From: Thermoanaerobaculia bacterium
GTDB taxonomy: Bacteria > Acidobacteriota > Thermoanaerobaculia > UBA5066
Assembly: GCA_963719225.1 (NCBI GenBank)
Contig: CAVRAY010000001.1
Span: 3,200,001-3,264,000, forward strand
Reading direction: 5' to 3'
DNA: 64,000 nucleotides
Shown: one piece after another, positions 653 to 59,527 of the stretch
Layout of the letters: every line of letters begins with the position of its first letter
How positions within the stretch are numbered: the stretch's first letter is position 1
Position numbers and translations under genes: made by a program
Notes under the pieces: generated by a model
The model's database searches: none
What the model was told of the DNA's origin: nothing
Seen by the model: only the letters and a program-made list of their open reading frames with translations

Positions 653-683
653 CAGCGGGCGCTCACGGGCCCGCTGATTTCTA
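653..683 (+). terminator. Probable intrinsic terminator between convergent genes
   Basis: CAGCGGGC (653-660) / GCCCGCTG (669-676) stem followed by ATTTCT. Confidence 0.5.
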
Positions 684-1610
684 AGAATTCTTTCTCTTCT
701 TTCTTTTCCTCAATTCCTCTAACAGCCTCTGAAAGTCCGCCGGAGGATCCGCGTCGAGCGAGACTTTCTTGCCTTCCGCCGTCGACCAGCCGAGGTGTCC
801 CGCGTGGAGCGCCTGGCGCTGCAGCGACACGGGAAAAGGCGGCTTCTTCGGGTCCCGGTAAACCGGGTCTCCCACGAGGGGATGGCCCGCGCTCGCGAAG
901 TGGACGCGGATCTGGTGCGTGCGGCCGGTCTTGAGGCGGGCCTCGACGAGAGTGGCGAGGCCGAAGCGCTCCATGACGGTCCACTCCGTCACCGCGCGAA
1001 TGCCCGCTTCGCCCGGCTTCGCGACGCCACGACGACGGTCGCCCCGGTCCTCGACGAGATCGCGGTCGAACGTCCCCGCGTCGCCCGCGAGGTCTCCCTC
1101 GACGACCGCGCGGTAGCGCCGCTCCATCGTGTGCGCCCGGAGCTGCGCCTGCAGAGTGATGAGGCCGCGCCGGCTCCGCGCGAACACGAGGATGCCGGAC
1201 GTCTCCTTGTCGAGCCGGTGAACGACGGACACGAACGTCCGGTCCTTTCCTCCGTGCCGCCTCTGCACGTATGCCGAGACCCTGCCGAGAAGAGTGTCCA
1301 CCTCTTTCGCCTCGGTCGGATGCGTGAGGAGCCCGGAAGGCTTCACGACCGCGATGGCGTCGTCGTCCTCGTAGAGAACGGCGAGGGACGTCTGGACGCG
1401 ACGCTCCTTCCGGAGGTTGCGGTCCCACCGCAGCGCCACGTCCCGCGAGATGATCGCTCCCGGGTCGTTCACGACCGTCCCGTCGACGGTCACCTGACCC
1501 TCGAGGACCGCCCGTTTGAGGCGCGTCGCGGACTCTTCGGGATAAATCGTCTGGAGGCGGCGGACGATGCGGAGGCTGCCCTCGGCGTCCGCGGCCGGGC
1601 CGCTCTTCAT
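681..1610 (-). CDS. RluA/RluD-family RNA pseudouridine synthase with S4 domain
   Basis: VVKPSGLLTHP, VHRLDKETSG (catalytic Asp) and TGRTHQIRVH motifs. Start placed at MKSGP (ATG 1610); the longer ORF in the track is a shadow of pepP. Confidence 0.92.
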   Translation of the reverse strand: MKSGPAADAEGSLRIVRRLQTIYPEESATRLKRAVLEGQVTVDGTVVNDPGAIISRDVALRWDRNLRKERRVQTSLAVLYEDDDAIAVVKPSGLLTHPTEAKEVDTLLGRVSAYVQRRHGGKDRTFVSVVHRLDKETSGILVFARSRRGLITLQAQLRAHTMERRYRAVVEGDLAGDAGTFDRDLVEDRGDRRRGVAKPGEAGIRAVTEWTVMERFGLATLVEARLKTGRTHQIRVHFASAGHPLVGDPVYRDPKKPPFPVSLQRQALHAGHLGWSTAEGKKVSLDADPPADFQRLLEELRKRKKRKNS

Positions 1611-1661
1611 CCCGCCATCGTCGCACGAACGGCGCGCGCTCCTCACGCGTAGACTTCCCCC

Positions 1662-2933
1662 ATGACCCGCTCTTTGGTTTTCGCGCGGCGCCGCGCCCGT
1701 TTCTTCGACGGAATGAAGGAGGGGGTCGCGCTGCTCTTCGCGACACCCGAGGCGGCTTACGGCCACGACGTTCATTACCGCTATCGGCCGGATCCGGACC
1801 TCTTCTATCTGACCGGGTTTCCGGAGCCCGAGGCCGCCGCGCTCCTCGACGCGGAGCGCCGGACGCTCACTCTTTTCGTCAGGCCGAAAGACCGCGCGAA
1901 GGAGACCTGGGAAGGCCGCCGCAGCGGTCCCGAAGGGGCCGTACGCGATCATGGAGCGGATCGCGCGTACGCGTTCGGAGAGCTCGCGAAACGCCTCCCC
2001 GACCTCGTCCGGCGCGCGAACGTCCTCCATTACGCCTTCGGCGCCCACGCCGAGGGCGACCGAATCGTCGCCTCTCTTCTCGCGCGATTCCGCCGCGAGG
2101 CCCGAAGCCCCAGGCGCGGACCGTCGGCCGTGGCGGATCCGACGGACCTCCTTCACGCCATGCGCCTCGTGAAGGGGCCGGAGGAGATCGCGCTCATGGA
2201 GCGCTCCGCGGCCATCGCCGTCGCCGCGCACCGGGAAGCGCGCCGCCGCGCGAAGCCCGGCCTCTTCGAATTCCAGCTCGAGGCCGCGATCGACGCGCGA
2301 TTCCGGGCGATGGGCGCGAGCGGGCCCGCCTATCCCACGATCGTCGCGTCCGGGGAGAACGCGACGATCCTGCATTACACGGAGAACCGGCGGCGCATCG
2401 GCGCCGGCGACCTGGTTCTCGTGGACGCGGGCTGCGAGCTCGAGGGGTACGCGTCCGACGTGACGCGCACCTTTCCCGCTTCGGGCCGCTACACACGTCC
2501 GCAGCGGCGGCTCTACGACGCGGTCCTCTCGGCGCAGCGCGCCGCGATCGCGGCCGTCAGGCCAGACGCGGCGTGGGACGCGCCGCACGACGCGGCGCGC
2601 GACGTTCTCCTCGACGCGCTGCTCGAGGCCGGGATCCTCCGCGGCAAGCGCGCGACGCTTCTCAAGAAGAACGCCGTCCAGCGCTTCGCCCTGCACCACA
2701 CGTCGCACTGGCTGGGCCTCGACGTCCACGACCGGGGCCGCTATCGGGACGAGGCCGGAGCCGCGCGGAGACTGGAGCCCGGCATGGTCCTCACCGTCGA
2801 GCCCGGCCTCTACGTCCGCGCCGACGAGACGGGCGCGCCGAAGGAGTACCGCGGGCTGGGCGTCCGTCTTGAGGACGACGTCCTCGTGACGGAGACGGGC
2901 TCGCGCGTCCTGACCGAAGGCGCCCCGAAGTAG
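1662..2933 (+). CDS. pepP: Xaa-Pro aminopeptidase (M24B)
   Basis: AMP_N domain (YRPDPDLFYLTGFPEP); metal ligands in DAG, SDVTRT, HWLGLDVHD, TVEPGLY, RLEDD. Confidence 0.92.
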   Translation: MTRSLVFARRRARFFDGMKEGVALLFATPEAAYGHDVHYRYRPDPDLFYLTGFPEPEAAALLDAERRTLTLFVRPKDRAKETWEGRRSGPEGAVRDHGADRAYAFGELAKRLPDLVRRANVLHYAFGAHAEGDRIVASLLARFRREARSPRRGPSAVADPTDLLHAMRLVKGPEEIALMERSAAIAVAAHREARRRAKPGLFEFQLEAAIDARFRAMGASGPAYPTIVASGENATILHYTENRRRIGAGDLVLVDAGCELEGYASDVTRTFPASGRYTRPQRRLYDAVLSAQRAAIAAVRPDAAWDAPHDAARDVLLDALLEAGILRGKRATLLKKNAVQRFALHHTSHWLGLDVHDRGRYRDEAGAARRLEPGMVLTVEPGLYVRADETGAPKEYRGLGVRLEDDVLVTETGSRVLTEGAPK

Positions 2934-2934
2934 G

Positions 2935-4209
2935 TCATCTCGCCGGCAACCGCGCGGGCTCGGCCCAGACGTCCTTCCTCAGCTCCGTCGCGACGCCTCC
3001 GCGGTTCTCGAGCAGCGCCCGCGCGGAAAACAGAATGTGCCCCGAGGCTCCGACCTGCGCGCGCGTGCGGCGGATCTGCTCGGCAATCTCGGCCGCCGGC
3101 CAGCCCTTCCCTTCCTCGCCCACCCGGCTCGCGGCGAGGCCGGGCCAGAGGAGACGTCCCTGGGTGTTCTGTCCCGCCCACCACGCGAGGAGCGCGGGGA
3201 AGCTCTGCTCCCTCTGGTCGATCGGCCAGTAGAGCTGCGGCGCGAGATAGTCCACCCAGCCGCGCTGGAGCCACGTGCGCGCGTCAGCCGAGATCTCCTC
3301 GTACGCGTCGAATCCCTTGACCTGCGCCGGCCGCCCGGGCCGCCAGATCCCGAAAGGGCTGATCCCCACACGCACGTTCGGCTTCAGCGCCTTCACGTCG
3401 TCGTGAAGGTTCTTGACGAACTTGTTCACGTTCCAGCGGCGCCAGTCTTCGTGGCCGAGAGCGCCGCCGGAAGCGACATACGCGGCGAAGCTCCGCTCGT
3501 CCGGAAAGTCCACGGCATTCCCGGCCGCGTTCTTCTCCGGATAGGGGTAGAAATAATCGTCGAGGTGGATGCCGTCCACGTCGTAACGCCGTACCACGTC
3601 GAGGATCACGGCGCGTGCGTGCGCCGCGACGTCCTCCTCGCCGGGGTCCATCCAGAGCTGCTTCCCGTAGGCTCTCACGAGGTCCGGACGCCGGCGTGAG
3701 ACATGAGCCGGCGCCGCAGGCGAGATCGGGCTCGCCGTCCGCGCGCGATAGGGATTGAACCAGGCGTGAAGCTCCATCCCGCGGCCGTGAGCGCTCTCGA
3801 TTGCGAAGGCGAGCGGGTCCCAGAGCGGCTCCGGTGGAACGCCCTGGGTGCCGCTCAGCACCTCGGACCAGGGCTCGAGCGCGGACGGATAGAGTGCGTC
3901 GGCGGCGGGCCGCACCTGGAAGATCACCGCGTTCGCGTTCAAGGCCGCGAGGGTGTCGAGAAGGGTGGTGAGCTCCTGTTTCTGTCGTGACGTCGACAGG
4001 CCGGGTGCCGATGGCCAGTCGAGATTTCCGACCGTCGCCACCCAGACGCCGCGAAGCTCCTGGCACGCCGCGGTGCGCGCGGGAGGGGGCGTTCGCTTTA
4101 CGGCCGGCACGACCGACACCGGGACGGGCGCAGGAGCCGGCGCCCCGCAGCCGGCCAAGAGCACGGGCGCGAACGTCGCCGAAAGCCTGAGTGCCCTGGA
4201 GATCTTCAT
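2935..4209 (-). CDS. Glycosyl hydrolase-like family 10 (YddW/DigH-type) lipoprotein
   Basis: Lipobox LLAGC; ELRGVWVATV, FQVRPAADALYPS, LHAWFNPYR, YDVDGIHLDDYFYP, DYLAPQLYW. Confidence 0.9.
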   Translation of the reverse strand: MKISRALRLSATFAPVLLAGCGAPAPAPVPVSVVPAVKRTPPPARTAACQELRGVWVATVGNLDWPSAPGLSTSRQKQELTTLLDTLAALNANAVIFQVRPAADALYPSALEPWSEVLSGTQGVPPEPLWDPLAFAIESAHGRGMELHAWFNPYRARTASPISPAAPAHVSRRRPDLVRAYGKQLWMDPGEEDVAAHARAVILDVVRRYDVDGIHLDDYFYPYPEKNAAGNAVDFPDERSFAAYVASGGALGHEDWRRWNVNKFVKNLHDDVKALKPNVRVGISPFGIWRPGRPAQVKGFDAYEEISADARTWLQRGWVDYLAPQLYWPIDQREQSFPALLAWWAGQNTQGRLLWPGLAASRVGEEGKGWPAAEIAEQIRRTRAQVGASGHILFSARALLENRGGVATELRKDVWAEPARLPAR

Positions 4210-4213
4210 GGTC

Positions 4214-5734: not shown

Positions 5735-5750
5735 GTCCCGCGGCGGCCTT

Positions 5751-7886: not shown

Positions 7887-7950
7887 GCGTCCTCCGTGCT
7901 CGGACGTGACAGATTACCCCAACCGGGGACTCGCGAGTCGCCGCGACCTT

Positions 7951-8238: not shown

Positions 8239-8276
8239 CGAATGAGACTCGTCTCGACGTAAGAGAAGCAGATGAA

Positions 8277-9452
8277 TCAGTACGAGCTGCTCGCGCCCCC
8301 GCCCCCGAAGCTCCCTCCTCCGCCCTGGTAGCCCGGCTCGGCCGGCGGGGCTCCGGGGGCATGCGCCGCCACGACGGGCACCAGCTCGAACGCACGAAGC
8401 CGGCGTTCGTCGGCGAACAGCGGCTCGGCCGTGAAACCGCGTCGCTCCTTGCCGGAGCTTCTCGCGAGCCAGCGGTGGCAGCCGAGAGCGAGGAGGAGCA
8501 GGCCGGCGCCCGCGAGGATCAGGAGGAGCCACGTCGCCGCGAGATGGACGTAGAACCGGAGCGTGAGAAGAGAGAGAGCCGTCAGGACGAGTCCGATGTC
8601 GAGCGCGAACACCCGGCGTGACCGGATTCCCCAGAAGACGATCGCGAGCGGAACGAGCGCCGTCAGCACGATCGACTCGATCCTCTCGCCGAAGCGCGGA
8701 CCGGGAGAGTCGGACCCCGCGCTCCCGAGCCCTTCGACGAGCCGATGATCGAGCCCGTACAGGTTCACCGCGGCATACACCGCCACGAGTCCGACGGCGA
8801 CGAGAACGGCCGCGCCCCTTCGATGGGAAGGCGGCGGCTTCGGACGGTCCATGAGTCGCTCGAAGGCGAACGTCATCGCGACGCCGCCGGCGATCCAAAG
8901 GACACGTCCCAGGGGCGCACGCGCCAGAAGGAGAAAGAACGAGATCCCGGCGAAGCCGGCGTAGACCGGGCTGCCCCAGCGCCACGCGGCGAGCGCCCAG
9001 AGAGCGAGCGAGGCGACGACGAGGAACGTCACGCCGCTTTTCTCGCGAACCTTCAACGTTTCCTCGAGGAAGAGGAAGAGGCCGACGAGCAGGAAGAGAA
9101 TTCCCCAGAAGCCGGTCGCGCCCGCCCCGCCGCGGAGGGCGAAGCGCGGCGAAGTCTCCTGCGCTTCCGTGGCGACGAGACACGCCGCCCCGAAGAAGAG
9201 CAGGAGGGCCGTGATGGTGCCGATCCCGCCGCGCGTGCCGAATGCACATGCTCCGAGAAGGAGGAGCACCGCCAGGGAGGCGAAGACGAACACGAGGACG
9301 CGCCAAAGCAGCGCGGGCAAGGCTCTCGGCTCGGGATACCTTCGAAGGATTTCTTCGAAGGTGCCCGCGCCGATCGCGCCGCCTCTCTTCCAGCCGCAGG
9401 CGGCGGCGCGGACCTCCTCGACGCGCTCGGCCTCGGTCCAGGCCCGTTTCAT
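8277..9452 (-). CDS. Multi-pass membrane protein with Gly-rich C-tail (DUF2157-associated)
   Basis: Start MKRAWTEAERVEEV overlaps the upstream stop (ATGA); about 10 hydrophobic segments; GGGGSFGGGGASSSY tail. Confidence 0.75.
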   Translation of the reverse strand: MKRAWTEAERVEEVRAAACGWKRGGAIGAGTFEEILRRYPEPRALPALLWRVLVFVFASLAVLLLLGACAFGTRGGIGTITALLLFFGAACLVATEAQETSPRFALRGGAGATGFWGILFLLVGLFLFLEETLKVREKSGVTFLVVASLALWALAAWRWGSPVYAGFAGISFFLLLARAPLGRVLWIAGGVAMTFAFERLMDRPKPPPSHRRGAAVLVAVGLVAVYAAVNLYGLDHRLVEGLGSAGSDSPGPRFGERIESIVLTALVPLAIVFWGIRSRRVFALDIGLVLTALSLLTLRFYVHLAATWLLLILAGAGLLLLALGCHRWLARSSGKERRGFTAEPLFADERRLRAFELVPVVAAHAPGAPPAEPGYQGGGGSFGGGGASSSY

Positions 9453-14199: not shown

Positions 14200-16272
14200 A
14201 TGCGATCTTCATCACAGGTCTTCGCCGTCCTGCTCGCGGCCTCGTCTGTGTCGGCCGCCGAGCCGGCGAAGAAGAAATTAGGCGTGGACGAAATGTGGGC
14301 CGTCTCGCGCGTCGGCGCGCCGGCGCTTTCTCCGGACGGCAAGCGCGTGGCCTACACGGTCGCAACCTACGACATGGAGGAAAACCGCTCGAACGCGGAC
14401 ATCTATCTCCTCGATCTCGCGGGCGGCCCGCCGCGCCGCCTCACGACGAACAAGGCGTCTGACACGTCCCCCACGTTCAGCCCGGACGGCCGCCGGCTCG
14501 CGTTCCTTTCCAAGCGCGACGGCGACGCCGTCACCGAGCTCTACGTCATTCCCGTCGACGGAGGCGAGCCGGAACGCCTCACGGACATGCCCACGTCCAT
14601 CGCGAATCCGAAATGGTTTCCCGACGGGAGGAGGATCGCGTTCCTCGCGAACGTCGTGGCCGGCGCCGAGTCCCCGGAGGAGACGAAGAAGGCCCTCGAA
14701 AAAAGAGAGAAGGCGAAGGTGAAGGCGCACGTCACCGAAAACCGCCTCTACCGCTACTGGGACCGCTGGCTGACGGACCAGGAGTCCACGCACCTGTTCG
14801 TCGCGGACGTTTCGACGAAGAAGATCACGGACCTTACCCCCACGAGCCGCCGCCTCCTCGGCCTGGAGGAGGGAGGTTCCTTCGACATCTCCCCGGACGG
14901 CCAGTCGCTCGTCTTCGCGGCGAACAGCTCGCCCGAGCCCTACAGGACGCTCAACTGGGACCTCTACCTCGTCTCCGCGGCGGGCGGCGACGCGAAGAAC
15001 CTCACGCCCTCCCGCGAAGCCGACGACAACAACCCGGTCTTTTCGCCCGACGGCAGGACGATCGCCTTCGGGACCCGCCTGAAGGCCGATGGCTGGCCGG
15101 ACTACACGCGTCTCGCCCTCCTCGACGTCGCGGGCGGGGTGGTCACGCTCCTGACGGACGGGTGGGAGAAGCCGGCGGGAGGCTGGGCTTTCGCGAGGGA
15201 CGGCTCGGAGCTCGTCTTCACCGCGGAATCGCGTGCGCGCACGAACCTGTACGCGGTGGCCGTCTCGGGCGGGACGCCGCGCGAGATCTGGAAGGGCGGC
15301 ACGGCTTCGGGCCCGGCCGTGACGGCGGGGGGTGACGTCGTCTTTCTGAGACACGACCTGAATCACCCCCCCGAGCTGGCGGCGGTGAAGCGGGACGGGA
15401 GCGCGTTCCGTCCGCTCACGAGCGTGAACGACGCGCTCGTCGCCACGTGGGACCTCGGCGCGGTGGCGGACCTGACGTTCAAGGGCGCGGGCGGCGACGA
15501 CGTCCAGATGTTCGTCGTCACCCCGCCCGGCTACGACGCGCGGAGGAAATACCCGCTCGTCCAGCTCGTCCATGGGGGGCCCGTCGGCACGTTCGGCGAC
15601 GCGTTCTCGTTCCGGTGGAACCCGCACGCCTTCGCCGCGCCCGGCTACGTCGTCGCGATGGTGAACTTTCACGGGTCGTCGAGCTTCGGGCAGAAATGGG
15701 TCGAGTCGATTCTCGGTGCGCATCCCGACAAGCCTTTTCTCGACGTCATGAAGGCCACGGACTTCCTGATCGCGCGCGGGGGCGTCGACGAAAGCCGGAT
15801 GGCCGCGGCCGGAGGCTCGTACGGCGGCTTTCTCGTGAACTGGATCGCGGGCCACACGGACCGCTTCAAGTGCCTCGTGAGCCACGCGGGCGTCTACGAC
15901 CTCATGGCTCAGTTCGCCTCGGACGTCACGTTCGGCCGGCAGCACAGCTATGGTGGCACCCCGTTCCGGAACCGCGACAACGTCGAGAAGTGGAGCCCGA
16001 ACCGTTACGCCGAGAGCTTCCGGACGCCCGTCCTCATCCTGCACGGCGAGCGCGACTACCGCGTTCCGATCGGGCAGGGCCTCGAGTTCTACGGCACGCT
16101 CGCGGCGAAGGGTGTGCCCGCCCGCCTCGTCGTCTACCCGGACGAGAACCACTGGATCCTCAAGGGCCAGAATTCGAAGCATTGGTACGGCGAGGTTCAC
16201 GGCTGGCTCGCGCGGTGGCTGAAGCCGGAGTCCCAGCCGGAGACCAAAGCGGAGACCAAAGAGTCGCGATGA
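14200..16272 (+). CDS. S9C dipeptidyl aminopeptidase/acylaminoacyl peptidase, secreted
   Basis: Signal peptide, PD40-like SPDG repeats, VHGGP, GGSYGG, HGERDYRV, YPDENHWI. Confidence 0.92.
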   Translation: MRSSSQVFAVLLAASSVSAAEPAKKKLGVDEMWAVSRVGAPALSPDGKRVAYTVATYDMEENRSNADIYLLDLAGGPPRRLTTNKASDTSPTFSPDGRRLAFLSKRDGDAVTELYVIPVDGGEPERLTDMPTSIANPKWFPDGRRIAFLANVVAGAESPEETKKALEKREKAKVKAHVTENRLYRYWDRWLTDQESTHLFVADVSTKKITDLTPTSRRLLGLEEGGSFDISPDGQSLVFAANSSPEPYRTLNWDLYLVSAAGGDAKNLTPSREADDNNPVFSPDGRTIAFGTRLKADGWPDYTRLALLDVAGGVVTLLTDGWEKPAGGWAFARDGSELVFTAESRARTNLYAVAVSGGTPREIWKGGTASGPAVTAGGDVVFLRHDLNHPPELAAVKRDGSAFRPLTSVNDALVATWDLGAVADLTFKGAGGDDVQMFVVTPPGYDARRKYPLVQLVHGGPVGTFGDAFSFRWNPHAFAAPGYVVAMVNFHGSSSFGQKWVESILGAHPDKPFLDVMKATDFLIARGGVDESRMAAAGGSYGGFLVNWIAGHTDRFKCLVSHAGVYDLMAQFASDVTFGRQHSYGGTPFRNRDNVEKWSPNRYAESFRTPVLILHGERDYRVPIGQGLEFYGTLAAKGVPARLVVYPDENHWILKGQNSKHWYGEVHGWLARWLKPESQPETKAETKESR

Positions 16273-40066: not shown

Positions 40067-41002
40067 ATGCCCGAGCTGCCGGATGTGACCATTTACCTCG
40101 AGCACCTGGACCGACTCGTGGCGGGTCAGGTCCTCCGGAAGGTCCGGCTTGCGAGCCCGTTCGTCCTGAGGTCGGTCGAGCCGCCGCTCAGGGACCTCGA
40201 GGGCCGAGCGCTCGAAGCGGTATCACGCCTCGGCAAGCGACTCGTATTCACATTCGAAGAATCCCTTTTCCTCGTTCTGCATCTCATGATTGCGGGCCGA
40301 TTGCGATGGCGCGAGTCGGGAGCCCCCATTCCAAAGAGAATCGGCTTGCTCTCTCTCGATTTCGACTCCGGGTCCGTTCTTCTGACGGAGGCGAGCCCGA
40401 AGAAGCGTGCGTGGGTGCGGGTCGTCGCGGGACGCGAGGCGCTCGCCGCCCTCGATCCCGGCGGCCTCGAGCCGCTCGAAGCGACGCGCGAGGCCTTTTC
40501 CGCGCGCTTGAGGAGCGAGAACCACACCCTGAAGCGCGCCCTGACGGATCCGACCCTCTTCTCCGGTATCGGAAACGCCTACTCGGACGAGATCCTCCAC
40601 GCGGCGAAGCTCTCCCCCGTCGCCCTCACGGCGCACCTCTCCGACGGGGAGGCCGCCCGTCTCCACGACGCGACGAAAACGACGCTTCTCGACTGGACGG
40701 AACGGCTGCGAAGGGACGCCGGCGAGAAGTTCCCCGAGAAGGTGACCGCGTTCCGTCCGGAGATGGCCGTGCACGGGAAGTTCGGCGAGCCGTGCCCCGT
40801 CTGCGGGACGAAGGTCCAGCGCATCGTGTACGCCGACAACGAGACGAACTACTGCCCGGCGTGTCAGACCGGCGGCAAGCTCCTGGCCGACCGCTCCCTT
40901 TCACGCCTTCTCCATGGCGACTGGCCGAAGAGCCTGGAAGAAATGGAGGAGCGGAAGACGAGGGAGCAGCTCGTCAGATCAACTCGGCCATCCGCCTCCT
41001 GA
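40067..41002 (+). CDS. Fpg/Nei-family DNA glycosylase/AP lyase
   Basis: MPELPDV N-terminus, HLMIAG, GIGNAYSDEIL (H2TH), CPVC..CPACQ zinc finger. Confidence 0.93.
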   Translation: MPELPDVTIYLEHLDRLVAGQVLRKVRLASPFVLRSVEPPLRDLEGRALEAVSRLGKRLVFTFEESLFLVLHLMIAGRLRWRESGAPIPKRIGLLSLDFDSGSVLLTEASPKKRAWVRVVAGREALAALDPGGLEPLEATREAFSARLRSENHTLKRALTDPTLFSGIGNAYSDEILHAAKLSPVALTAHLSDGEAARLHDATKTTLLDWTERLRRDAGEKFPEKVTAFRPEMAVHGKFGEPCPVCGTKVQRIVYADNETNYCPACQTGGKLLADRSLSRLLHGDWPKSLEEMEERKTREQLVRSTRPSAS

Positions 41003-45400: not shown

Positions 45401-45618
45401 CCGCCGCCCGTGCCGCCGAAATAGAACGTGAGCGGCTGGCCCGGAACGCCGGCGACAGCCGTGACGCGTCCGCCTCGAAACGGGCCGATGTTGCGGAACT
45501 CGAGGCCCTGGAGCTTTTCGGAGAGGGTGGATGGGGATTGATTGGGCGTCGGCTCAGGCGACGCCTGCGCGCCTAGGGTGATCGCGAGCGCAGCCGCAAC
45601 GGTGAAAAGCCTCCCCAT
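42430..45618 (-). CDS. Secreted VPS10/BNR-repeat glycosyl hydrolase-like protein
   Basis: Signal peptide, FRNIGPFRGGR, repeated S/T-x-DGGxTW Asp-boxes, HGDNHDLWIDP, QFYRV. ATG at 45618. Confidence 0.9.
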   Translation of the reverse strand: MGRLFTVAAALAITLGAQASPEPTPNQSPSTLSEKLQGLEFRNIGPFRGGRVTAVAGVPGQPLTFYFGGTGGGVWKTTDGGASWDAVSDKFFKTGSVGALAVAESDPNVVYAGMGEGCIRGNVSAGDGVWKSTDAGKTWVYAGLKETQQIPRVRVHPKNPDLVYVAALGHTWGPNPDRGVFRSQDGGKTWKKILFVNDRTGASDLVMDPVNPRVLYAGFWQVGRKPWSLESGGPDGGLWKTTDGGDTWKKLAGGLPEGVVGRVGVAVSGARPERVWAIVEAEKGGVFRTDDGGETWKKLNDENKLRQRAWYYSHVYADPKNADAVYVLNVGFFRSGDGGKTFESIRTPHGDNHDLWIDPNEPSRMIEGNDGGATVTFNGGRSWSSLLNQPTAQFYRVTTDDRFPYRVFGAQQDNTTVEILSRTRGRSIGPGDWHPVGGCESGWVAPKPGDPDVSFAGCYGGAIERYDFRTGDGRDVVAWPQLAIGQAPKDLKYRFQWNAPILISPHDPKTLYHAAQILLKSTDEGETWQEISPDLTRNEKETQGYSGGPITYDNTGVEVYGVIFALAESPREAGTIWAGTDDGLVQLTRDGGKTWKNVTPKGLPERIQINSLELSPHDPAVAYVAATMYKHDDTRPYLYRTGDFGKTWTKIVSGIPDGAFTRVVREDPVRRGLLFAGTETGLYLSFDDGASWLPFQRNLPVVPVTDLTIKDGDLVVATQGRSFWILDDLATLENWNADVEKKDLHLFRPSPTIRYGSSGDWGDPERGLPRGVGQNRSGGALISYWLKDAPPKKAAAKDAVVIEILDGDKVLRRFTSEKPAEDAGTPEARNEDAEKPLEPKVGLNRFTWDLRMWKPSLVPKAILWGSKNGPRVAPGTYTVRLRKGETGLSQPLEVRANPNLRVSPADLKKQAEFLAEARDRLSDTHEAALACRDVKRQAKEIAERAAKLGKKEPLAGKAKLLSEKLSALEDKLVNPKVKSEQDVLNFPPQLDHQFVGVASVVSSGEAAPSKAAIAYFAELKARLADLKKQLENVLDTDLADFNKTVQEQGIPPVAAMPREEKK

Positions 45619-45674
45619 CTTCTTTCTCCCCTTTCTAAGAAAATTTCCTTCTCTTCTCTTCCTCTTCGACGATA

Positions 45675-49369: not shown

Positions 49370-52300
49370 TTACCTGCTAATGGGGATGTAGCTGCCGTCG
49401 GAGTTGTGCTGGTCGTTGAGGACTCCGTACGCGGCCCAGCGCGAGGAGCCCGAGAGCCTCTCGACCTTCGCGAAGCCGGCCGCCGCGCCGCGCTCGGCGA
49501 GCGGCCCGTTGAACTGCTTCCACTCCCCCGGCGACAGCGTTGCCGTTTCGGGATTCGAAAGGAGCGATCCGTCGGGCCCGTAGTACGTCACGCGTAGCGT
49601 GATCGAATCGCCCGCGTCGCCGCGGTTCACGACGGCGAGGTTCGAGCGCTGGACGTCGTTCTGCTGCAGGCCGTTCACGTACGCGAGCGCCGTCGCGCTC
49701 TCGCCGAACGTCAGGCCGGGGTAGAAGAGACCGAACGTGCCGCCGCCCGCCGCGTTCGTGAACGTCCGCGCTCCGACTGCGAGCGAGGAGGCAGGCGTGC
49801 CAGAGGGAGCATTGACGAGGAGCGATCCTCCAACATTGCCGGAAGTGGGGATCGGGAGACCGAGATTCCTTAGAAAGGTCATGGAGTCGGCTTCTATCCG
49901 CTGTTCGCCCGCCGGCAGCGTGAACGGCACCATCCCCGAGCCCGCGGCCGAGAGCTGAGGCGAGCCGGTGTACGTCAGGCTCAGCGCGAGCGGCTGGTTC
50001 GTGAAGTTCGTCAGCGTCAGCTCGGTCTGATACCCGGCCGCGCTCAGCACGATCGGGACGAGGCGGTCGGCCCCGGAGCCGTCGCCCGGGATGATTGCCG
50101 GCACGAACGATCCGTCCGAAGTCCCCGCGTCGTTGAGGACGCCGTAGGCCGTGAAAGGCGAGGTTCCGGAAACCCTCGTCACGACCGCCAGCCCCGAAGT
50201 CGCCTTTCCGAGGAGCGGCTGGTTGAGCTGCGTCCAGCCCCAGCCGGGGAGGTTCTCGTCGGCAGGTTCCGTCAGCCTCTCGCCGTTCGCGCCCTCGAGC
50301 GAAACGCGCAGCGTGATCGGGTCCGGTCCCGCATTGATCAGGGCGAGGTTCGAGCGCTGCGCGGCGTTCTGCTGCAGTCCGAAAACCGTGGCTGTCGTCG
50401 TCGAGGTGGCCGCCGCCGTGTAGAAGAGCCCGAAGGTGCCGCCCGCCCCCGGCGTCGACGTGCGCGCGCCGATGAAAACGTCGCTCGAAGACGACGCGCC
50501 CTGGAACACGGCGCGCAGCGTCCCGATCTGCGCGGAACCATCCTGGGGAATCGCTAGCGACCGCGTGCGCAGGAACGCGATCACGTCGGGAATGACCCGC
50601 AGCTCGCCCGCTCCGAGCGTCAGGCTCGCGAAGCCGCTGCCCGAGCCGACGGAGGGTGTGTACTGGAGGAGGACCGTGACGGGCGCGCTCGCCTTCGAAG
50701 CCAGCGTGAGCTCGGACGTGTAATGCGCCCCGCCCGCGCCCGGCGTGTCGAGGACGACGGGCAACAGCTGCTCCGGCCCTCCGGTGAACGCGGGAGCGCG
50801 GACCGTGACGGTCGTCGTCGCCGTGGAGACGAGCCCGAGGGTGTCGCGCACTTTCAACGTCACGACGTACGTTCCCGGTGCCGCGAACGCGTGGTCCACC
50901 GGACTGCCCGAGCCGGCCGTCCCGTCGCCGAAATCCCAGGTCGACGTCGTCGGATCGTTCGGATCGACCTGCGTCACGTTCGCGACGAAGCGGACCATCG
51001 TCCCTGCGTCCACCGTTCCTCCGCCCGCGAGAGGCGCGATCGCCGCGCCGGGCGCGGAGTCGCCGGTGGGAGCCCAGGCCGAAAAGACCTCCGTGTTCGC
51101 GGGCGAGTCGTCCGTCCACATGACGAGGAGGTTGCCGAGCGCGTCCGTCGCGCCCGCGGCGCCGGTCGAGACGCCTGGATTCGCCGACAGGTTCACGGGT
51201 GGCTCGAACGTCTTCCCCCCGTCGGACGAGCGCGCGGTGAAGATGTCGCTCTGGTCGTTCCCGGTGTCGTCCTCCCAGACGATCGAGATGCCCCCGCGGG
51301 AGTCCGCAACGACCGACGGATAGAAGCTCTGCCCGGCGTTGTTAGAGACGTCGACCGGAGCCGAGAACGTCGCACCGCCGTCCGTGGATCTGATGAACAT
51401 GACCTCGCGGTTGAGGGACGAGTCGGCGTTCACGGTGCGGTTGTAGAACGTGACGAGGAGCGCGTCGCTCCTGTCCACGGCGACCCGGGGCGCGAACGAG
51501 TTCACGCTCGAGTCCGAGACCGTCTTCTTCACGGAGAACGTCGTGCCGGCGGGCGCGATCGCCATGCGGCACGTGAAAGGCGTCCCCGCCGAATTCGTCG
51601 TCGTCGACCAGGCGAGATAGGCGGCGCCCTTCGAGTCGAAGGCGAGCGAGAGCGGCTGAAGCGGGTTGATGTTGTTCTCGTCGGGCAGGGACTGGACCGT
51701 TCCGAACGTCGCGCCGGCATCCGTTGAACGCACGGCGTTGATGACGAGGAGGCTGTTCGCCGGATCCTGGTCGATGAAAGCCACGACGACGTTGCGGTTC
51801 GCGTCGACCGCGATCGCCGAGAGGTCGGCGTTCCGTCCCGCCTTGCTGACCCTGACCGGAGCCTGGAAGGTCGCACCGCCGTCCGTCGAGCGCGTCACCC
51901 AGATCTCTCCGATCGCGCCGTTCTGAGTCGTGAACGAGACGTAGGGGTTCCCCGAGGCATCCAGAGCGAGGACGCCACCCGTCGCGGCTGCCGTGTTCGT
52001 GGAGACCTTGAGCGGCGCCGACCAGGTGAGGCCGCGATCCGTCGACCGCCGGTAAACGACGTCCGAGCCCGTCACGTTCCGGGTGTCGTCGTCATAAACG
52101 AGGTGGATCGCGCCCGCCGAGTCGATGCGCGGCGGGCCCGCCAGGCTCGAGAAGCCCGCTGAGCGGCTCACGTTGAGCGGGAGCGACACGGGGCGGACCG
52201 CCGGCTGCACGTCGAAACGGACGTTAGTCTTTCGCGCGAAGGACGTTCCCGCGGCCGCGACGGTCACGAGATACGTGCCCGGAGGAAGGGACGGCGCCGC

Positions 52301-54039: not shown

Positions 54040-54051
54040 CGGTTCTCGAGT

Positions 54052-55497
54052 ATGCGAAATAAGTGCCTCGTGAGGTTGGGTCTCGTCGCCCTCCTTTCCG
54101 GAGGTTCCGCCGCGCCGGCAGCCTCTCCTGCGCCTGCCGGGGAAGCGCGCACCATCGTCGAAGCGCTCGTCGCCTGCGGCACACGCCACTCCCTGTCCTC
54201 CTGGTCGGACACGAGGCGCGGCATCGGCTGCGGGCGCGACGTGGTCGTCCGCAATCTCGAAGCGGTCGAAAACGAGTCCGGAAAACGGATGCGGGTCGTC
54301 GTCGACAAATTCGAGACGACCGCGCCACGCACGAAGAACGCCGCCGTGCCGATGGAAAACGTCTACGCGATCCTTCCGGGCATCGATCCCGCGCGGGAGC
54401 GGACGGCGTTCGTCGTCTCCGGCCACTACGACTCGATGCCCTCCGACGTCATGGATCCCGCGACGGACGCGCCCGGCGCCGACGACGACGCGTCCGGCAC
54501 GGCGGTCTCGATCCTCACGGCGCGCGCTCTCGGCGCGACGCCCGCGCGCGCGACGCTGATCTTCGCGGCCGTCGCGGGCGAGGAGCAGGGCCTCCTCGGC
54601 GCGAAGCGGATGCTCGAGTGGCTCGGCAAGCACGGGTACGCCGTAGGCGGAATGATCACGTGCGACATCGTCGGCGCGACGAACGGGAGCACAGACCGCC
54701 GCGTGCGCGTCTTCTCCGAAGGCGGGCCCGACGGCGTCGACTCGCCGGGACGGCAGATGGCGCGCCTCGTCGAGGACGTGAACGGCAAGGACAAGGTGCG
54801 CCTCGTCTTCCGCCTCGACCGCTTCGGGCGGGGCGGGGACCACCGGCCGTTCACCGAGGCGGGCCTCCCCGCCGTGCGCTTCACGGAGCCGCTCGAAGAT
54901 TATCGCCACGAGCATCAGACCCCACGCGTCGTGAACGGAATCGAATACGGCGACCTCGTGAAATTCATGGACTTCGACTTCGTCGCGGACACGGCGAGAG
55001 CCGTCGAGAGGACGCTGGAGGAAATGGCGAATGCTCCCGCGCCTCCCCGAAAGGTGACGCTCGGCGGAGCCGTGACGCCGGACGCGAAGATCTTCTTAGA
55101 AAGTAATGAGGACCCGGAGCGCGCGGGCTATGAGATTCTGTGGCGAGAGACGACGGATGCACGATGGAGTGTCCTTCGAACGGTCGATCCCAGGTCGGCG
55201 CAGGCGGAGGCCGCTGCGAACGCCGCACCTGCGGCGGCGCCGGCTGCGCCGCAGGCCGCCTCAGGGGCCCCCCGCTCCCCCTCTCTTTCACTCGAAGAAT
55301 CTCTCTCCTCGGTCCTCTCTTCGATCTCCACGGACAACCATTACTTCGCGGCGCGGAGCGTCGGAAAGAACGGGAAAAAGAGCATCGCCGTGCCGGCGGT
55401 CGCCGCCGTGAGACTGCCGCCCGGATTCGTTGCGGCTGACGCGCCGAAGCCGGCCGCAGCTCCCGCGCCAACAGCCACGACAGTTCCGAAGAAGTGA
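54052..55497 (+). CDS. M28-family metallopeptidase, secreted
   Basis: SGHYDS, GADDDASG, AGEEQGL, DIVG, RGGDH, YRHEHQ. Confidence 0.9.
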   Translation: MRNKCLVRLGLVALLSGGSAAPAASPAPAGEARTIVEALVACGTRHSLSSWSDTRRGIGCGRDVVVRNLEAVENESGKRMRVVVDKFETTAPRTKNAAVPMENVYAILPGIDPARERTAFVVSGHYDSMPSDVMDPATDAPGADDDASGTAVSILTARALGATPARATLIFAAVAGEEQGLLGAKRMLEWLGKHGYAVGGMITCDIVGATNGSTDRRVRVFSEGGPDGVDSPGRQMARLVEDVNGKDKVRLVFRLDRFGRGGDHRPFTEAGLPAVRFTEPLEDYRHEHQTPRVVNGIEYGDLVKFMDFDFVADTARAVERTLEEMANAPAPPRKVTLGGAVTPDAKIFLESNEDPERAGYEILWRETTDARWSVLRTVDPRSAQAEAAANAAPAAAPAAPQAASGAPRSPSLSLEESLSSVLSSISTDNHYFAARSVGKNGKKSIAVPAVAAVRLPPGFVAADAPKPAAAPAPTATTVPKK

Positions 55498-55516
55498 GCT
55501 CCACGGCGGCTCGCGC

Positions 55517-57295
55517 ATGACCATCACGCCGCTCGACTGGGCCATCGTCGCCGCCTACTTCCTTCTCTCGATCGGCGTTGGAGTCGCCTTTACGAAGAGG
55601 GGCGGCGAATCGCTCGAGCAGTACTTCGTCGCGGGGCGCAAGGTGCCGTGGTGGCTCGCGGGCGCCGCGATGATCGCGACGACGTTCGCGGCGGACACGC
55701 CGCTCGTCGTGACGGGCCTCGTCGCGGCCCACGGGGTCGCCGGCAACTGGATCTGGTGGAACTTCGTCATGTCGGGAACGCTGACGGTCTTTCTCTACGC
55801 GCGCCTCTGGCGCCGCGCGAAGGTCATGACGGACGTCGAGTTCGCCGAGATCCGCTACAGCGGGCGGCCCGCGACGTTCCTGCGCGGCTTCCGCGCGCTC
55901 TACCTCGCGCTCCCGATAAACCTCATCATCCTCGGCTGGGTCACGCTCGCGATGGTCAAGATCCTCCAGATCTCGCTCGGGATCCGGCCGCTCTGGGCCG
56001 TCGGCCTCTGCTTCGTGATCACGGTCGGGTACTCCGCTGCCGCGGGGATGTGGGCCGTCCTCTGGACCGACCTCGTCCAGCTCGTCATCAAGATGACCGC
56101 GGTCATCCTCCTCGCGTATTTCGCGGTGAAGAAGGTCGGCGGCATCGCCGGGCTCGAGGACGGGCTCGCGAAGCACTTCGGCTCCGTCGACGCGGCGATC
56201 TCCTTCCTCCCGCCCGCGGGCTCGGCGTGGATGCCCGCGATCGCGCTCTTCACGTTCCTCGCGGTCCAGTGGTGGGCCGCTTGGTACCCGGGCGCCGAGC
56301 CGGGCGGCGGCGGCTACGTCGCGCAGCGCATCTTCTCGGCGAAGACCGAGCGCGACGGCATTCTCGCGACGCTCTTCTTCAACGTCGGCCACTACGCGTT
56401 CCGCCCGTGGCCCTGGATCCTCACCGGCCTCGCGACCGTCCTCCTCTACCCCGCCGGCGTCCTCGTGAACGGCAGGCCCGACCACGAGGCCGCGTACGTC
56501 CAGGCGATGGTCGACCTCATGCCCGCCGGCTGGAAAGGCTTCATGCTCGCCGGCTTCGCGGCGGCTTACATGTCGACGGTCGGGACCCACTTGAATTGGG
56601 GGGCTTCGTATCTCGTCGGGGATGTCTATAAGAGATTTCTCAGAAAGGGGGAGAGCGAGAAACACTACGTGGCCGTTTCTCGCTGGACGACGGTTGGTTT
56701 GTTTCTGCTCTCCATCCTCGTCACTCTGAATCTGTCGTCCATCGAAGGAGCCTGGCGGTTCCTCCTCGCGCTCGGGAGCGGGACGGGCCTCGTGCTCATC
56801 CTCCGTTGGTACTGGTGGCGCATCAACGCGTGGAGCGAGATCGCCGCGATGCTGACGTCGATGGTCGTTTCGCTCGCGGCTTTCGCGTTCGTCCCGACCG
56901 GTTCGGGCCCCGGCGCGGTGTTCGAGCAGCAGGCGATCGTGATGCTCGTGACGGTCGTGGCGACGACGGTCGTCTGGCTCGCGGTGACGTTCGCGACGAA
57001 GCCCGAGCCCGACGCGACGCTGGACGCGTTCTACCGCCGCGTGCGTCCGGGCGGGCCCGGATGGGCGCGCGTCTCGGCGCGGCTCGGCTTCGGGAAAGAA
57101 CCGATCCCCGGCGGGGCGATGTCCTTCCTGAACTGGGCTCTCGGGATCGTCCTCGTGTACACGGCGCTCTTCGGGATCGGGAAGATCGTCTTCGGGCAGC
57201 TCTGGCTGGGTTTCGAGCTTCTCGATGTCGCGGCCGTTTGCTTCATCCTCATCATGTGGAGCCTGAAGAGGCAGGAGAAGAAGGAAAAGACGTAG
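55517..57295 (+). CDS. Sodium:solute symporter (SSS family)
   Basis: YFVAGRKVPWW, ATTFAADTPL, YVAQRIFSAK, AAYMST; 13 or more TM helices. Confidence 0.92.
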   Translation: MTITPLDWAIVAAYFLLSIGVGVAFTKRGGESLEQYFVAGRKVPWWLAGAAMIATTFAADTPLVVTGLVAAHGVAGNWIWWNFVMSGTLTVFLYARLWRRAKVMTDVEFAEIRYSGRPATFLRGFRALYLALPINLIILGWVTLAMVKILQISLGIRPLWAVGLCFVITVGYSAAAGMWAVLWTDLVQLVIKMTAVILLAYFAVKKVGGIAGLEDGLAKHFGSVDAAISFLPPAGSAWMPAIALFTFLAVQWWAAWYPGAEPGGGGYVAQRIFSAKTERDGILATLFFNVGHYAFRPWPWILTGLATVLLYPAGVLVNGRPDHEAAYVQAMVDLMPAGWKGFMLAGFAAAYMSTVGTHLNWGASYLVGDVYKRFLRKGESEKHYVAVSRWTTVGLFLLSILVTLNLSSIEGAWRFLLALGSGTGLVLILRWYWWRINAWSEIAAMLTSMVVSLAAFAFVPTGSGPGAVFEQQAIVMLVTVVATTVVWLAVTFATKPEPDATLDAFYRRVRPGGPGWARVSARLGFGKEPIPGGAMSFLNWALGIVLVYTALFGIGKIVFGQLWLGFELLDVAAVCFILIMWSLKRQEKKEKT

Positions 57296-57304
57296 TGAGC
57301 CGCC

Positions 57305-58924
57305 TCAGGCGGCGCGCATCGCCGAGCGCACCGCGTCGGCGGGGGGGACGAGGCTCATCGCCCTCTCGGCGAGCGCCGTGATCGTGAGAGAAGGATTCAC
57401 GCCCGGGTTCGCCGAGATGGCCGAGCCGTCCACGACAAAGAGCCCTTCGTAGCCGAAGACGCGGTGGCGGGCGTCGATCACGCCGGTCGCCAGCGACGCC
57501 CCCATGCAACAGCCACCGAGGATGTGCGCGGTCGTCGGGATCCCGAGGAGCGTCTCGGTCGCGAGGCTCTCGGTATAGCCGTCGAGCTTCTTCTCCACGC
57601 GGCGCGCGAGCTCGGTGGCTTCCGGGACCCACGCCTTCGCCTGCGGCCCGCTCCCCGTTCCCGTCGTGAGGCCGCGCCGGAAGAGCGTCCGGATGCCGCG
57701 GCCGAGCTTCATGCGGAGCGTCCCCTCGGACGTGCGCATGTAGAGCAGGATCATCGTGTACCTCGCCCAGTCCGGCACGAACGCGGCCTTCAGTGTGGCC
57801 CACGGCTTCTTCACGAACATCGCCCCGGCGTTCAGGAGACGCGTGCCGACGGTGTCGCCCGGCGCGTGCGGCATCGCCAGCGGGCGAAAAAAGCCGGAGC
57901 CCGCGGGATAGCGCACGGGCTCGAGGTGGGAGTGCGCGTCCGTCTGCAGGATGGAGCCGATCGCGATGCCCTCGGAGAGGTCCACGTCGCGCCGCTCGGT
58001 CACGACGCCCATGAGGACTTCCGAGTTCGTGCGCACGAAATCGCCGAGACGGTCGGAGATGTTCGGGAGGCCGTGGGGGCTTTCCTTCAGCTTGAGGAGG
58101 AGCTCCACCGTGCCGAGAACGCCCCCCGAAAAAACGACGCTCCTGGCCGCGAACGTCCGCGTTCTTCGCAGGAAAGGAAACGGCGAGCGTCCGGTGCGCG
58201 CTGTGATGGCATAGCCGCCGCCCTCGAGAGGCCGCACCCACGTGACCTCCGTGTCGGCCTCGACCTTCACGCCGCGCCTCTCGGCGAGCCAGAGGTAGTT
58301 CTTGTCGAGCGTGTTCTTCGCCTCGTGGCGGCAGCCCACCATGCAGCCTCCGCAGCGCGTACAGCCGGCGCGCTCCGGCCCTTCACCGCCGAAGTAGGGA
58401 TCGGGCACCTTCACGCCGGGCTCTCCGAAGAAAACAGCGACGTCCGTGGACGACCAGCCGTCCTCGCGGCCGATGTCCCTGCCCACCTCGCGCAGCACCT
58501 CGTCGGGCAGCGTCGTGAACGGCACTCGCGTAGCGCCGAGCATCCGCTTGGCGGTGGCGTAGTGGGGCGCGAGCTCGGCCTTCCAGTCGGCAAGGTCTCC
58601 CCAGGACGGAGCGGAGAAAAACTCGTCGGCCGGAACGGGAAGCGTGTTCGCGTAGACGAGCGATCCGCCGCCCACGCCGACTCCCGAGAGAGCCGTGACG
58701 TGGGGAAGAAACGTCATCTTGAAAAGGCCGCGGCAGCCCAGGGACGGCAGCCAGAGCCATCGCTTCACGTTCCAGTTCGATTTCGGAAAGTCGGACGCGG
58801 AAAAGCGCGTGCCTTTCTCGAGGACGAGAACGCGATGCCCCTTCTCCGCGAGGCGTAGCGCGCTCACGCTCCCGCCGAACCCGGAGCCGACGATCACGAC
58901 GTCGGCGTCGAACTTCTCTTGCAC
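57305..58924 (-). CDS. Cholesterol oxidase-like (ChoD-type) GMC oxidoreductase
   Basis: GSGFGGSVSALRL, GVGGGSLVYAN, CTRCGGCMVGC, KNTLDKNYL, TAHILGG, GVNPSLTITALAERAM. GTG start. Confidence 0.9.
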   Translation of the reverse strand: MQEKFDADVVIVGSGFGGSVSALRLAEKGHRVLVLEKGTRFSASDFPKSNWNVKRWLWLPSLGCRGLFKMTFLPHVTALSGVGVGGGSLVYANTLPVPADEFFSAPSWGDLADWKAELAPHYATAKRMLGATRVPFTTLPDEVLREVGRDIGREDGWSSTDVAVFFGEPGVKVPDPYFGGEGPERAGCTRCGGCMVGCRHEAKNTLDKNYLWLAERRGVKVEADTEVTWVRPLEGGGYAITARTGRSPFPFLRRTRTFAARSVVFSGGVLGTVELLLKLKESPHGLPNISDRLGDFVRTNSEVLMGVVTERRDVDLSEGIAIGSILQTDAHSHLEPVRYPAGSGFFRPLAMPHAPGDTVGTRLLNAGAMFVKKPWATLKAAFVPDWARYTMILLYMRTSEGTLRMKLGRGIRTLFRRGLTTGTGSGPQAKAWVPEATELARRVEKKLDGYTESLATETLLGIPTTAHILGGCCMGASLATGVIDARHRVFGYEGLFVVDGSAISANPGVNPSLTITALAERAMSLVPPADAVRSAMRAA

Positions 58925-59002
58925 GCAAGCGAGTCTACGTCTGTTTCTTCGGCCGGATCGTGCCGAGACGCGTGCTACGCTGAGGACGCACTCGGAGGCC
59001 GG

Positions 59003-59455
59003 ATGCGCAGGTTCCTGATCGTCGCCGCCGCGATCGCTCTCGCCGTGTGGCTCTATCGGAAGTCGCACCAGGACGGCGCTCCGACCGCCCGGCCCGTCGG
59101 AGGCGAATCGTCTCCCGGCCCCGGCTGCCTGATGGCCGCCGAGAGCGCGAACGGCGCGTTGGCCGAGGCCACACGCCTCCTGATCTCGATGCCCGTCGAC
59201 TCGTCGAAGTGGAGCGATGCCGAGGGCCGAGCTTCCTCCGCGATCTCGCGGGCCGAATCCGCGTGCTCGGGCGGCGCGACGGAAGCCGAGCGCGCCGGGA
59301 TGGAATCGGCGCGGGAGGCGCTCACTCTCATGCGCGCGACTCTCAGGGAGGCCGCGCACGCCGCCCTCGGTGCGGGAGGTTTTCAGGGCGCGCTACGGCA
59401 GGAGGCGATCGACAACCGACTGGCCTCCGCGCGCGGGAAGTTCGGCCTCCGCTAG
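59003..59455 (+). CDS. Hypothetical membrane-anchored helical protein
   Basis: GGAGG RBS, N-terminal TM/signal segment, Ala-rich helices, two Cys. Confidence 0.65.
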   Translation: MRRFLIVAAAIALAVWLYRKSHQDGAPTARPVGGESSPGPGCLMAAESANGALAEATRLLISMPVDSSKWSDAEGRASSAISRAESACSGGATEAERAGMESAREALTLMRATLREAAHAALGAGGFQGALRQEAIDNRLASARGKFGLR

Positions 59456-59527
59456 CCTCACAGGGCACGGTTCGGTCGCAACATCCTCCCGGCGGTTTCG
59501 TAGAAACCCGTTAATAAGGAGGACGTC

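Follow-up and report, generated by a model that had tools for sequence, protein, structure and literature searches.

The window analysed here is a stretch of 64,000 nucleotides from a Thermoanaerobaculia bacterium (G000:C1:3200001-3264000, where G000 denotes its genome). It carries copies of a directional 20-base motif that recurs hundreds of times in this genome, largely as convergent pairs with an optimal spacing of 74-77 bp. The motif is a real, lineage-specific, paired cis-element, and it fails a defining test of every known family that we tried. We met no description of it in a literature search that did not extend to supplements, where a motif table could mention it. Judged from its sequence pattern, the paired sites may well be the target of a two-fold symmetric DNA-bridging protein complex acting in the terminus half of the chromosome, a proposal that we regard as evenly balanced.

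The motif reads GRRGA, followed by a variable T run, T(2-4), and then CTT(A/C)GAA(G/A)G(G/T)RAA. Its outer arm is rich in purines. A sequence-only reading of the window had reported a dispersed palindromic 11-mer. This 11-mer is one variant of the 20-base motif, which is directional instead of palindromic (G at +5 in 54% of sites). The seven matches reported in the window are indeed there, all with at most one mismatch (0.42 expected) and two of them exact (0.02 expected). The assembly of G000 spans 4.75 Mb in two contigs, C1 and C2 (68% GC, 97% complete), and its gene models are dicodon calls (3905 genes, 87.6% coding). Genome-wide, the 11-mer has 61 exact copies (59 on C1, 2 on C2), and the anticipated enrichment holds after synonymous and local shuffling. 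The word TTTCTTAGAAA, which is the main variant, occurs 53 times against 0.08-0.2 expected (Markov orders 2-4, whole genome), and TTCTTAGAA is the 9-mer with the highest over-representation in G000 (273 against 6.7 expected). The motif core is found 238 times within genes, whereas synonymous shuffling leaves 10-20 copies when applied to whole genes and 43-60 when confined to 40 codons; over the whole genome it is found 364 times, compared with 0-3 after shuffles in 40 or 100 bp windows.

The site set was derived from an iterated 20-column matrix with thresholds of 14 and 16 bits. In G000 the matrix converged on 852 sites of at least 14 bits and 771 at 16 bits. Control matrices returned 93 and 54 sites at the two thresholds when reversed, and 25-36 and 9-19 when permuted; up to about a tenth of the sites may therefore be false. 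The 3' end of the 16S gene with the start of the following spacer (G000:C1:905530-905556; one assembled 16S gene) resembles the reverse strand of the motif. We judge this match to be chance, because the 16S 3'-end sequence concerned is general across bacteria.

The sites face each other. Among 299 site neighbours that lie 25-320 bp apart in G000, 234 are convergent and 12 divergent; permutation of the strand labels gives a maximum of 97 convergent cases, and a local Poisson model expects 47.5 neighbours in total. Counted by site, 584 of 852 have a convergent partner and 26 a divergent one. Even among 266 strong sites that seemed to be single, 116 have a convergent partner at 7 bits, against 20 with one in the divergent position. 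Altogether G000 contains 474 site clusters, including 192 plain + - pairs and 192 singles. The same arrangement is seen in G019, a distant congener examined over 800 kb picked for site density (127 convergent, 9 divergent). In both genomes the spacing has a floor at about 65 bp, a mode at 75-79 bp and a tail reaching 300 bp, and a period of 26-36 bp is not significant (p 0.16 and 0.06). When 185,579 genomes were scanned for pairs of perfect sites at a spacing of 65-95 bp, 116 stretches emerged, 55 of them with 74-76 bp; every one of the 80 listed belongs to Acidobacteriota or Thermoanaerobaculia. Viral contigs gave no match to the one pair pattern that was searched. The convergent pair with its 74-77 bp optimum is the main feature of the element, and the sequence-only reading had missed it. 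Orthologous pairs shift their spacing by whole codons, so the optimum is not obligatory.

The DNA between the sites was compared after removal of orthologues and paralogues, which reduced 428 pairs to 289. In the 94 arms of the 74-77 bp pairs, G or C stands at +22 in 95% and at +23 in 90%. A GpC step occupies +22, that is 22 bp inside each site, in 50% of these arms and in 12-19% of those in wider classes. None of 2000 rotations reaches the observed level, and by subset the step is present in 40% (G000), 45% (other genomes), 36% (genic) and 42% (intergenic). Since the GpC step was first found by inspection and then tested, it is the rotation test and the replicate that carry weight. The interiors are unique host DNA; the only links that BLAST shows are within a kinase family of 16 members and within small groups of 2-5. 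The members of this family, Ser/Thr kinase paralogues in a tandem array (G000:C1:2293328-2319700) and nine other places, have the same 93-bp pair in the N-lobe in 16 copies. Of 271 pairs, 160 lie within one gene, including genes for tRNA synthetases, DNA ligase and a UvrD-like helicase (named by eye), and the encoded proteins are Glu/Lys-rich before and Ser/Pro-rich after each pair. Within the interiors GpC steps and Ala codons are raised and GA/TC is lowered, while CpG is lowered and CA/TG raised at synonymous positions. Interior folding is no better than background, and what we take to be the IHF consensus has 0 matches inside pairs.

The element is indifferent to strand. Genic sites are divided into 271 sense and 277 antisense, and the matrix is identical for 235 sites of either kind. 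The leading strand has 380 sites and the lagging strand 391, with the same purine arm on both, and the strand of the sites is balanced in 100-kb bins. A strand-biased word that flips at dif does exist in this genome, namely GGGGGAG (one octamer 54 against 7 within 400 kb of dif), and judging by this polarity it is likely the KOPS of the lineage. The arms of one pair resemble each other no more than arms matched at random do (z -0.2 to 1.2). Nor are they better suited to base pairing: there are 3287 Watson-Crick matches against 3307 +- 35 for shuffled partners, the duplex energy is -28.8 against -28.9, and wobble-compatible positions are in slight excess (883 against 812). An RNA or single-stranded DNA stem, as in attC or RNase III substrates, was rejected, as there is no arm covariation and the interior folds no better than background. 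An H-DNA or intrastrand triplex mirror was likewise rejected; the best of 37 axes has a z of 3.8 on a broadly positive background, and intergenic sites give 2.7. Because the pair is conserved, strand-indifferent and non-covarying, we infer that the site is read as duplex DNA, presumably through two protein contacts.

Sites have arisen in place and are kept. In an alignment of the isoleucyl-tRNA synthetase (IleRS) from 23 sequences of the genus (4 partial or broken ones dropped) and 5 outgroups, the sites were built by substitution in sequence that is collinear with outgroups lacking them. One + site is present in 23/23 and its partner in 22/23, and Ser runs (poly-Ser, TCT/TCC) expand on the outer arm. 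The symporter site of the window stands at the same place in 24/24 aligned sequences, which represent 23 genomes and remained after 3 incomplete loci out of 26 had been set aside. It encodes Lys-Arg-Phe-Leu-Arg-Lys with the rare codons AGA (2.6% of Arg codons) and TTT (10.7% of Phe codons). Between G019 and G000, fourfold sites differ at 43%, and conservation at synonymous positions in relatives, an expectation of the sequence-only reading, was borne out: 96 of 126 coding motif sites are conserved in G019, and 105 of 138 in the reverse direction. A or T at fourfold sites in the motif core is retained in 68%, compared with about 10% elsewhere. By these comparisons the motif core is kept by selection. 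Near the sites, amino-acid identity is 0.58-0.68, compared with 0.73 over the genes concerned. An apparent avoidance of codon-typical genes was a circular first impression, and vanished when site-adjacent codons were left out.

The genome has a single clean origin-terminus GC skew, with its minimum at C2:369 kb and its maximum at C1:2.10 Mb. The dnaA gene lies at C2:326 kb, a palindrome that we take to be parS-like at C2:333827, and what we presume to be the dif site at C1:2037570-2037597. With C1 and C2 assumed to be joined end to end, genes less than 1 Mb from dif carry 16-23 sites per 100 kb, and those farther away 6-10. Mapped relative to origin and terminus, the density is thus about threefold higher in this region, and background AT is flat along C1. 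On a long contig of G044, which is kin of G000 and not independent of it, 61 of 63 hits lie up to 1.02 Mb right of dif and 2 beyond, which gives a right-hand edge like that of G000 at about 1 Mb. In G019 the site-dense DNA extends close to dnaA; on its contig G019:C2 just 730 kb separates dif (at 108 kb) from dnaA (at 838 kb), presumably through rearrangement or misassembly. In G000 dif is flanked by one pair per side, an arrangement that varies across the genus. A short conserved element ending in ATTCGG/GTTCGG was noticed by eye about 20-35 bp right of dif in loci of g11, g13 and g16. Intergenic DNA holds about 75 sites per 100 kb and genes 11-15; between genes the figure is 77 for convergent, 75 for tandem and 51 for divergent regions. 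Of the earlier proposal that the window contains binding sites of a chromosome-organising protein, one part stands, namely a genome-wide, conserved, terminus-biased double-stranded DNA site; the nucleoid-protein role itself is conjectural.

The motif is confined to two sister genera, g1 (28 genomes) and g11 (8 genomes); the sequences that cluster with DnaN of G000 bear the names Thermoanaerobaculia or Acidobacteriota. Across 63 genomes of the family, the copy number of a 13-bp pattern is 74-372 in g1 (28/28), 5-58 in g11 (8/8) and 0-3, the level of chance, in the 27 others, and the variant base is A in g1 and mostly C in g11. Among 251 genomes of the class, none outside g1 and g11 has more than 4 copies of a 12-bp pattern. 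Neither G056 (120 kb) nor G045 (310 kb) showed a dialect with another sequence. The outgroup G025 is an unpublished genome, and no claim depends on it alone.

How might such pairs be used? In the reading that we regard as evenly balanced, a two-fold symmetric, sequence-specific complex would bind two facing 20-bp sites, mostly 74-77 bp apart. One complex would bridge both sites, bending or shaping the ~50 bp between them, and would help to organise the terminus half of the chromosome. Protein binding is suggested by conservation without arm covariation, a single complex holding both sites by the sharp optimum of about seven helical turns together with interior positions that are fixed only there, and a structural role like that of MatP on matS by the terminus bias alone. 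By geometry, a fold at the pair midpoint would bring the two sites, each with its purine arm, next to each other and pointing the same way, like the apex of a loop. Wider pairs may be looser loops of the same complex, and the purine arms may be lower-affinity contacts under selection. More tentatively, and with somewhat less than even confidence, we suggest a sequence-programmed chromosome particle that would be new to bacteria. A two-fold symmetric complex would recognise a pair of asymmetric sites that face each other at a distance of seven helical turns, and would shape the intervening DNA. It would occupy several hundred fixed positions, roughly one per 7 kb of the terminus half, under selection strong enough to have rewritten housekeeping proteins, and would serve as a loop anchor or domain boundary defined by sequence.

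Several observations weigh against a bridging complex. About one third of the sites have no partner at 14 bits. Within a range of 9.5-11.5 bp the spacings show no significant period (10-11 bp, p 0.56 and 0.59), which counts against it because a tight DNA loop would usually show helical phase. The interiors have no clear match to the loop-seq flexibility code (10.1101/2020.08.22.262352); TpA is low and raw CpG unchanged. The positional bias is a broad threefold plateau of about 2 Mb, with sites near the origin too, unlike matS. Uptake sequences yield the same evolutionary pattern. Finally, no binder was found among the few candidate proteins tested, the proteome not having been profiled.

A different use of facing sites would be as places where a pair of sliding rings or translocases is loaded, or halted, in head-to-head orientation, or as a two-way boundary whose halves act outward on SMC, AddAB or FtsK. 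By analogy this fits the floor at ~65 bp, the optimum at ~76 bp, the tail to 300 bp and the missing helical phase, which resemble opposed ORC sites, and also the purine gradient on the outer side that fades over ~100 bp. We nonetheless think it unlikely. The one clean GC skew argues against active extra origins, the fixed interior positions of the 74-77 bp class suit a single static complex better, and the KOPS-like polarity sits on a different word. Moreover, inspection by eye of 146 soluble P-loop proteins of at least 330 amino acids revealed no lineage-specific ring ATPase.

More doubtful still, also by analogy, is a signal for uptake or recombination that is propagated by molecular drive, as DNA uptake sequences (DUS) and uptake signal sequences (USS) are, and that needs two facing copies, for example in a folded DNA loop taken in through a dimeric receptor. 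No uptake sequence is known to us that requires paired copies with a fixed spacing or is concentrated in the terminus half, and a threefold positional bias centred on dif would not be expected. Like uptake sequences, the sites lie at poorly conserved residues, have genus-level variants and are missing from accessory DNA: three accessory stretches near dif have 0 sites in 32 kb, compared with 44 in 118 kb of core DNA. The genic share of 64% is close to the 65% given for H. influenzae in PMC2817400. Putative ComM-, ComEA- and pilus-like genes are present by sequence motif.

The sequence-only reading had also considered a site that locally changes mutation or repair. As an explanation of the whole element, in which recurrent nicking or blocked repair would leave the patches as a footprint and neither motif nor arms would be selected, this is very unlikely. 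The compositional patches themselves were described correctly: third-position AT is 0.33 against 0.05 in the symporter, 0.41 against 0.11 in the BNR-repeat gene and 0.42 against 0.16 in the M28 gene, and the pyrimidine fraction is 0.78 at 681-730 and 0.85 at 45619-45666. Genome-wide, fourfold-site AT rises from 0.105 far from sites to 0.40 just outside a site, and is 0.18 at the centre of long pairs, against 0.108 in equally diverged coding DNA. Just outside the sites A is up and C down on the motif strand, a shift that fades across ~100 bp, and the outer arm carries a 3-nt repeat (GAA/GAG) of no fixed phase. The synonymous loss of CpG inside pairs, the gain of CA/TG there and the poly-Ser expansions on the outer arm would also suit such a footprint. 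However, the core is kept at synonymous sites, and G-C transversion divergence within pairs is 0.30-0.36 against 0.35 and thus not raised, although near saturation limits this test. A bias does not build a 20-bit paired motif. It may shape arms and interior as a side effect, and the less marked AT shift seen in the flanks and the interior is one that changed mutation or repair might explain.

We give hardly any credence to the idea that the pairs are ends of mobile or invertible elements, such as miniature inverted-repeat transposable elements (MITEs), REPINs or invertons, or strands of an RNA stem. The inverted arrangement, the modal length and the wobble excess would be in line with it. Against this, the interiors are unrelated host DNA, that of IleRS aligns residue by residue with site-free outgroups, the arms do not covary, and the matrix is identical on both strands. 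Inversion within the genes of IleRS or the leucyl-tRNA synthetase would break them. Contigs from sequencing runs (4 of 22 runs, mixed relatives, at most 18% of words) weigh neither way; among the 15 of 452 joints listed, none is an inversion. The regulon of a global transcription factor with paired operators is the least credible reading: the high intergenic density would favour it, but convergent intergenic regions equal tandem ones in site density and exceed divergent ones, pairs stand mid-gene, gene starts between paired sites (26/271) are not in excess, and the terminus bias remains.

If a bridging complex does act on the pairs, its DNA-binding protein could be recognisable by a distribution that tracks the motif. 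MatP (PF06303) has no match in G000 at E 0.1, a cut-off that the E. coli control exceeds, and the histone fold (PF00808) has none in G000. A second parA-parB pair lies directly beside dif (G000:C1:2037865-2039524), a position that a pattern search gives for ParB2 in 26 of 30 loci. The recognition helix of this ParB2 differs from that of the origin ParB. ParB2 was rejected as binder, being present at full score in 69 of 71 genomes of the order with a recognition helix that is invariant in the motif-free g13-g16. The ParC subunit of topoisomerase IV was rejected as well (5/5 genomes, including motif-free g13 and g16); parC and parE are split and 2.7 Mb apart in G000. Two IHF-like subunits, one beta-like and one alpha-like (G000:C1:2066464 and 1862341), also occur in genera without the motif. 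Both have an extra arm-tip residue (RNPK-R/K-), which the beta-like one has in g11 and g13 too.

Two HU genes flank rsmB-fmt upstream of ftsK (G000:C1:2995921-3001495). The second HU is present in 26/28 genomes of g1, 8/8 of g11 and 2/27 others, and was not found in g13 (0/17), g12, g14, g15, g16 or g95. It was set aside as a tracking binder: G045 has it and yet 0 sites in 310 kb, so this HU is at most an accessory. An orphan protein (G000:C1:3836045-3836539; 164 amino acids, basic, family-wide) is predicted to contain two domains of three helices each, besides an Arg/Gly/Pro linker and a C-terminal segment that is conserved (pLDDT, the model confidence score, 72). It has no Pfam family over the cut-off, Atlas hits below 0.9 and no Foldseek match at E 0.001; the best Foldseek rows, weak at E 0.3-0.6, are DNA-binding domains of the tandem helix-turn-helix type. 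From the model it is a candidate nucleoid protein, but as binder of the motif it was rejected, since it is present in 54 of 61 family genomes, also without the motif. Near dif, no gene special to g1 and g11 looked binder-like. Beyond these, G000 has two Rho paralogues (G000:C1:953702, 3852363) and two Ku-like genes (C1:1296575, 1891480).

In the window itself, five of the seven 11-mer matches belong to the directional motif, with the one at 678 borderline at 14 bits; those at 15343 and 59496 do not, as their matrix score is below 0. The sites at 9355, 40257 and 55295 had been missed.

Table 1. Motif sites and associated features in the window (positions counted from its first letter).
Feature	Position	Strand	Score (bits)	Context
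Site, centre 55097	55088..55107	+	24 (28.1 with simple background)	In M28 peptidase gene; left member of 198-bp convergent pair
Site, centre 55295	55285..55304	-	16.5 (19.4 with simple background)	Right member, paired with 55097
Site, centre 45637	45627..45646	-	30.5	Strongest in the window; between MFS gene end and BNR/Vps10 gene start
Outer arm of site 45637 (- strand)	45647..45666			Pyrimidine tract on + strand, purine tract on motif strand
Possible weak convergent partner of 45637, centre 45521	45512..45531	+	8.8	116 bp away; uncertain
Site, centre 56641	56632..56651	+	21.3	In sodium/solute symporter gene; no partner above 7 bits
Site, centre 49871	49862..49881	+	19.9	In BNR/PKD gene, antisense; no partner above 7 bits
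Site, centre 40257	40247..40266	-	24.0	In Fpg/Nei DNA glycosylase gene (window 40067-41002)
Overlapping opposite-strand sites, centres 9355 / 9345	9335..9365	+ / -	21.9 / 16.8	
Borderline site, centre 683, with long outer arm	673..730	-	14.0	Between two convergent gene ends

Among known systems, matS/MatP shares with the element a lineage-restricted motif that is enriched around dif, in and between genes, without strand polarity. The matS/MatP system structures a macrodomain and delays segregation. Noc binding sites (NBS) and SlmA binding sites (SBS) avoid the terminus, where the motif is enriched. Together with parS/ParB they are single palindromes, compared with the pairs seen here. Dispersed chromosomal sites are common to all three and the motif, and the TTTC..GAA halves of the motif resemble the presumed parS at C2:333827; the second ParB beside dif, however, keeps its helix-turn-helix in genera without the motif. 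KOPS, SRS, AIMS (as defined in PMC5993296) and Chi are likewise directional, purine-rich and commoner near the terminus, but the present motif is much longer, paired and without leading-strand bias. In PMC11564523, matS density rises towards the terminus, with 43 and 35 sites on the two V. cholerae chromosomes, or 3-6 per 100 kb, and the sites are single, near-palindromic and confined to a domain of 0.5-0.8 Mb. Here, in contrast, there are about 850 sites, some 20 per 100 kb, on a plateau of ~2 Mb and also near the origin, in directional convergent pairs.

Uptake sequences generally act singly and are spread evenly. The motif is like DUS and USS in being over-represented in core DNA and in open reading frames at tolerant residues, with none in the accessory DNA checked; it is unlike them in its obligate-looking convergent pairing, spacing optimum, fixed interior positions and terminus bias. 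In PMC2817400, uptake sequences are described as having hundreds of copies, two thirds of them in open reading frames, at poorly conserved residues and with lineage dialects, and as absent from genes without homologues. REP/REPIN, MITEs, the NIME dRS3 repeats and invertons also have inverted copies tens to hundreds of bases apart, whereas here the interior is unique host DNA, sites arose in place and arms do not covary. Histone-wrapped particles would call for a histone fold and a 30-bp ladder of spacings; here there is no histone fold match and no significant period of 26-36 bp. A geometric analogy exists with opposed ORC sites, a pair of asymmetric, oppositely oriented sites at which the MCM double hexamer is loaded. 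In budding yeast, PMC12440816 reports a peak at 70-90 bp, with loading that is efficient at 300 bp and phase-insensitive. The analogy is geometric only; here there is one skew-defined bacterial origin. Apart from the motif, G000:C2:201373-206069 has four Lys-rich, very short open reading frames (45-57 amino acids) with a common KPxKGGxVRGG segment, which are precursor-peptide-like.

Known bacterial architecture signals are single sites, either palindromes (matS, parS, NBS, SBS) or strand-biased words (KOPS, Chi). For a paired, spacing-coded element in hundreds of copies we found no apparent counterpart. The motif accounts for odd poly-Ser and Glu/Lys patches in proteins of the genus, and the motif pair fully defines a bait for isolating the binding protein. 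Because most of the family lacks the element, while one genus has it sparsely and the sister genus densely, it offers a view of a code arising and spreading through a proteome. If the pairs are loop anchors or domain boundaries, they would give fixed and predictable positions to what delimits kilobase-scale domains in bacteria.

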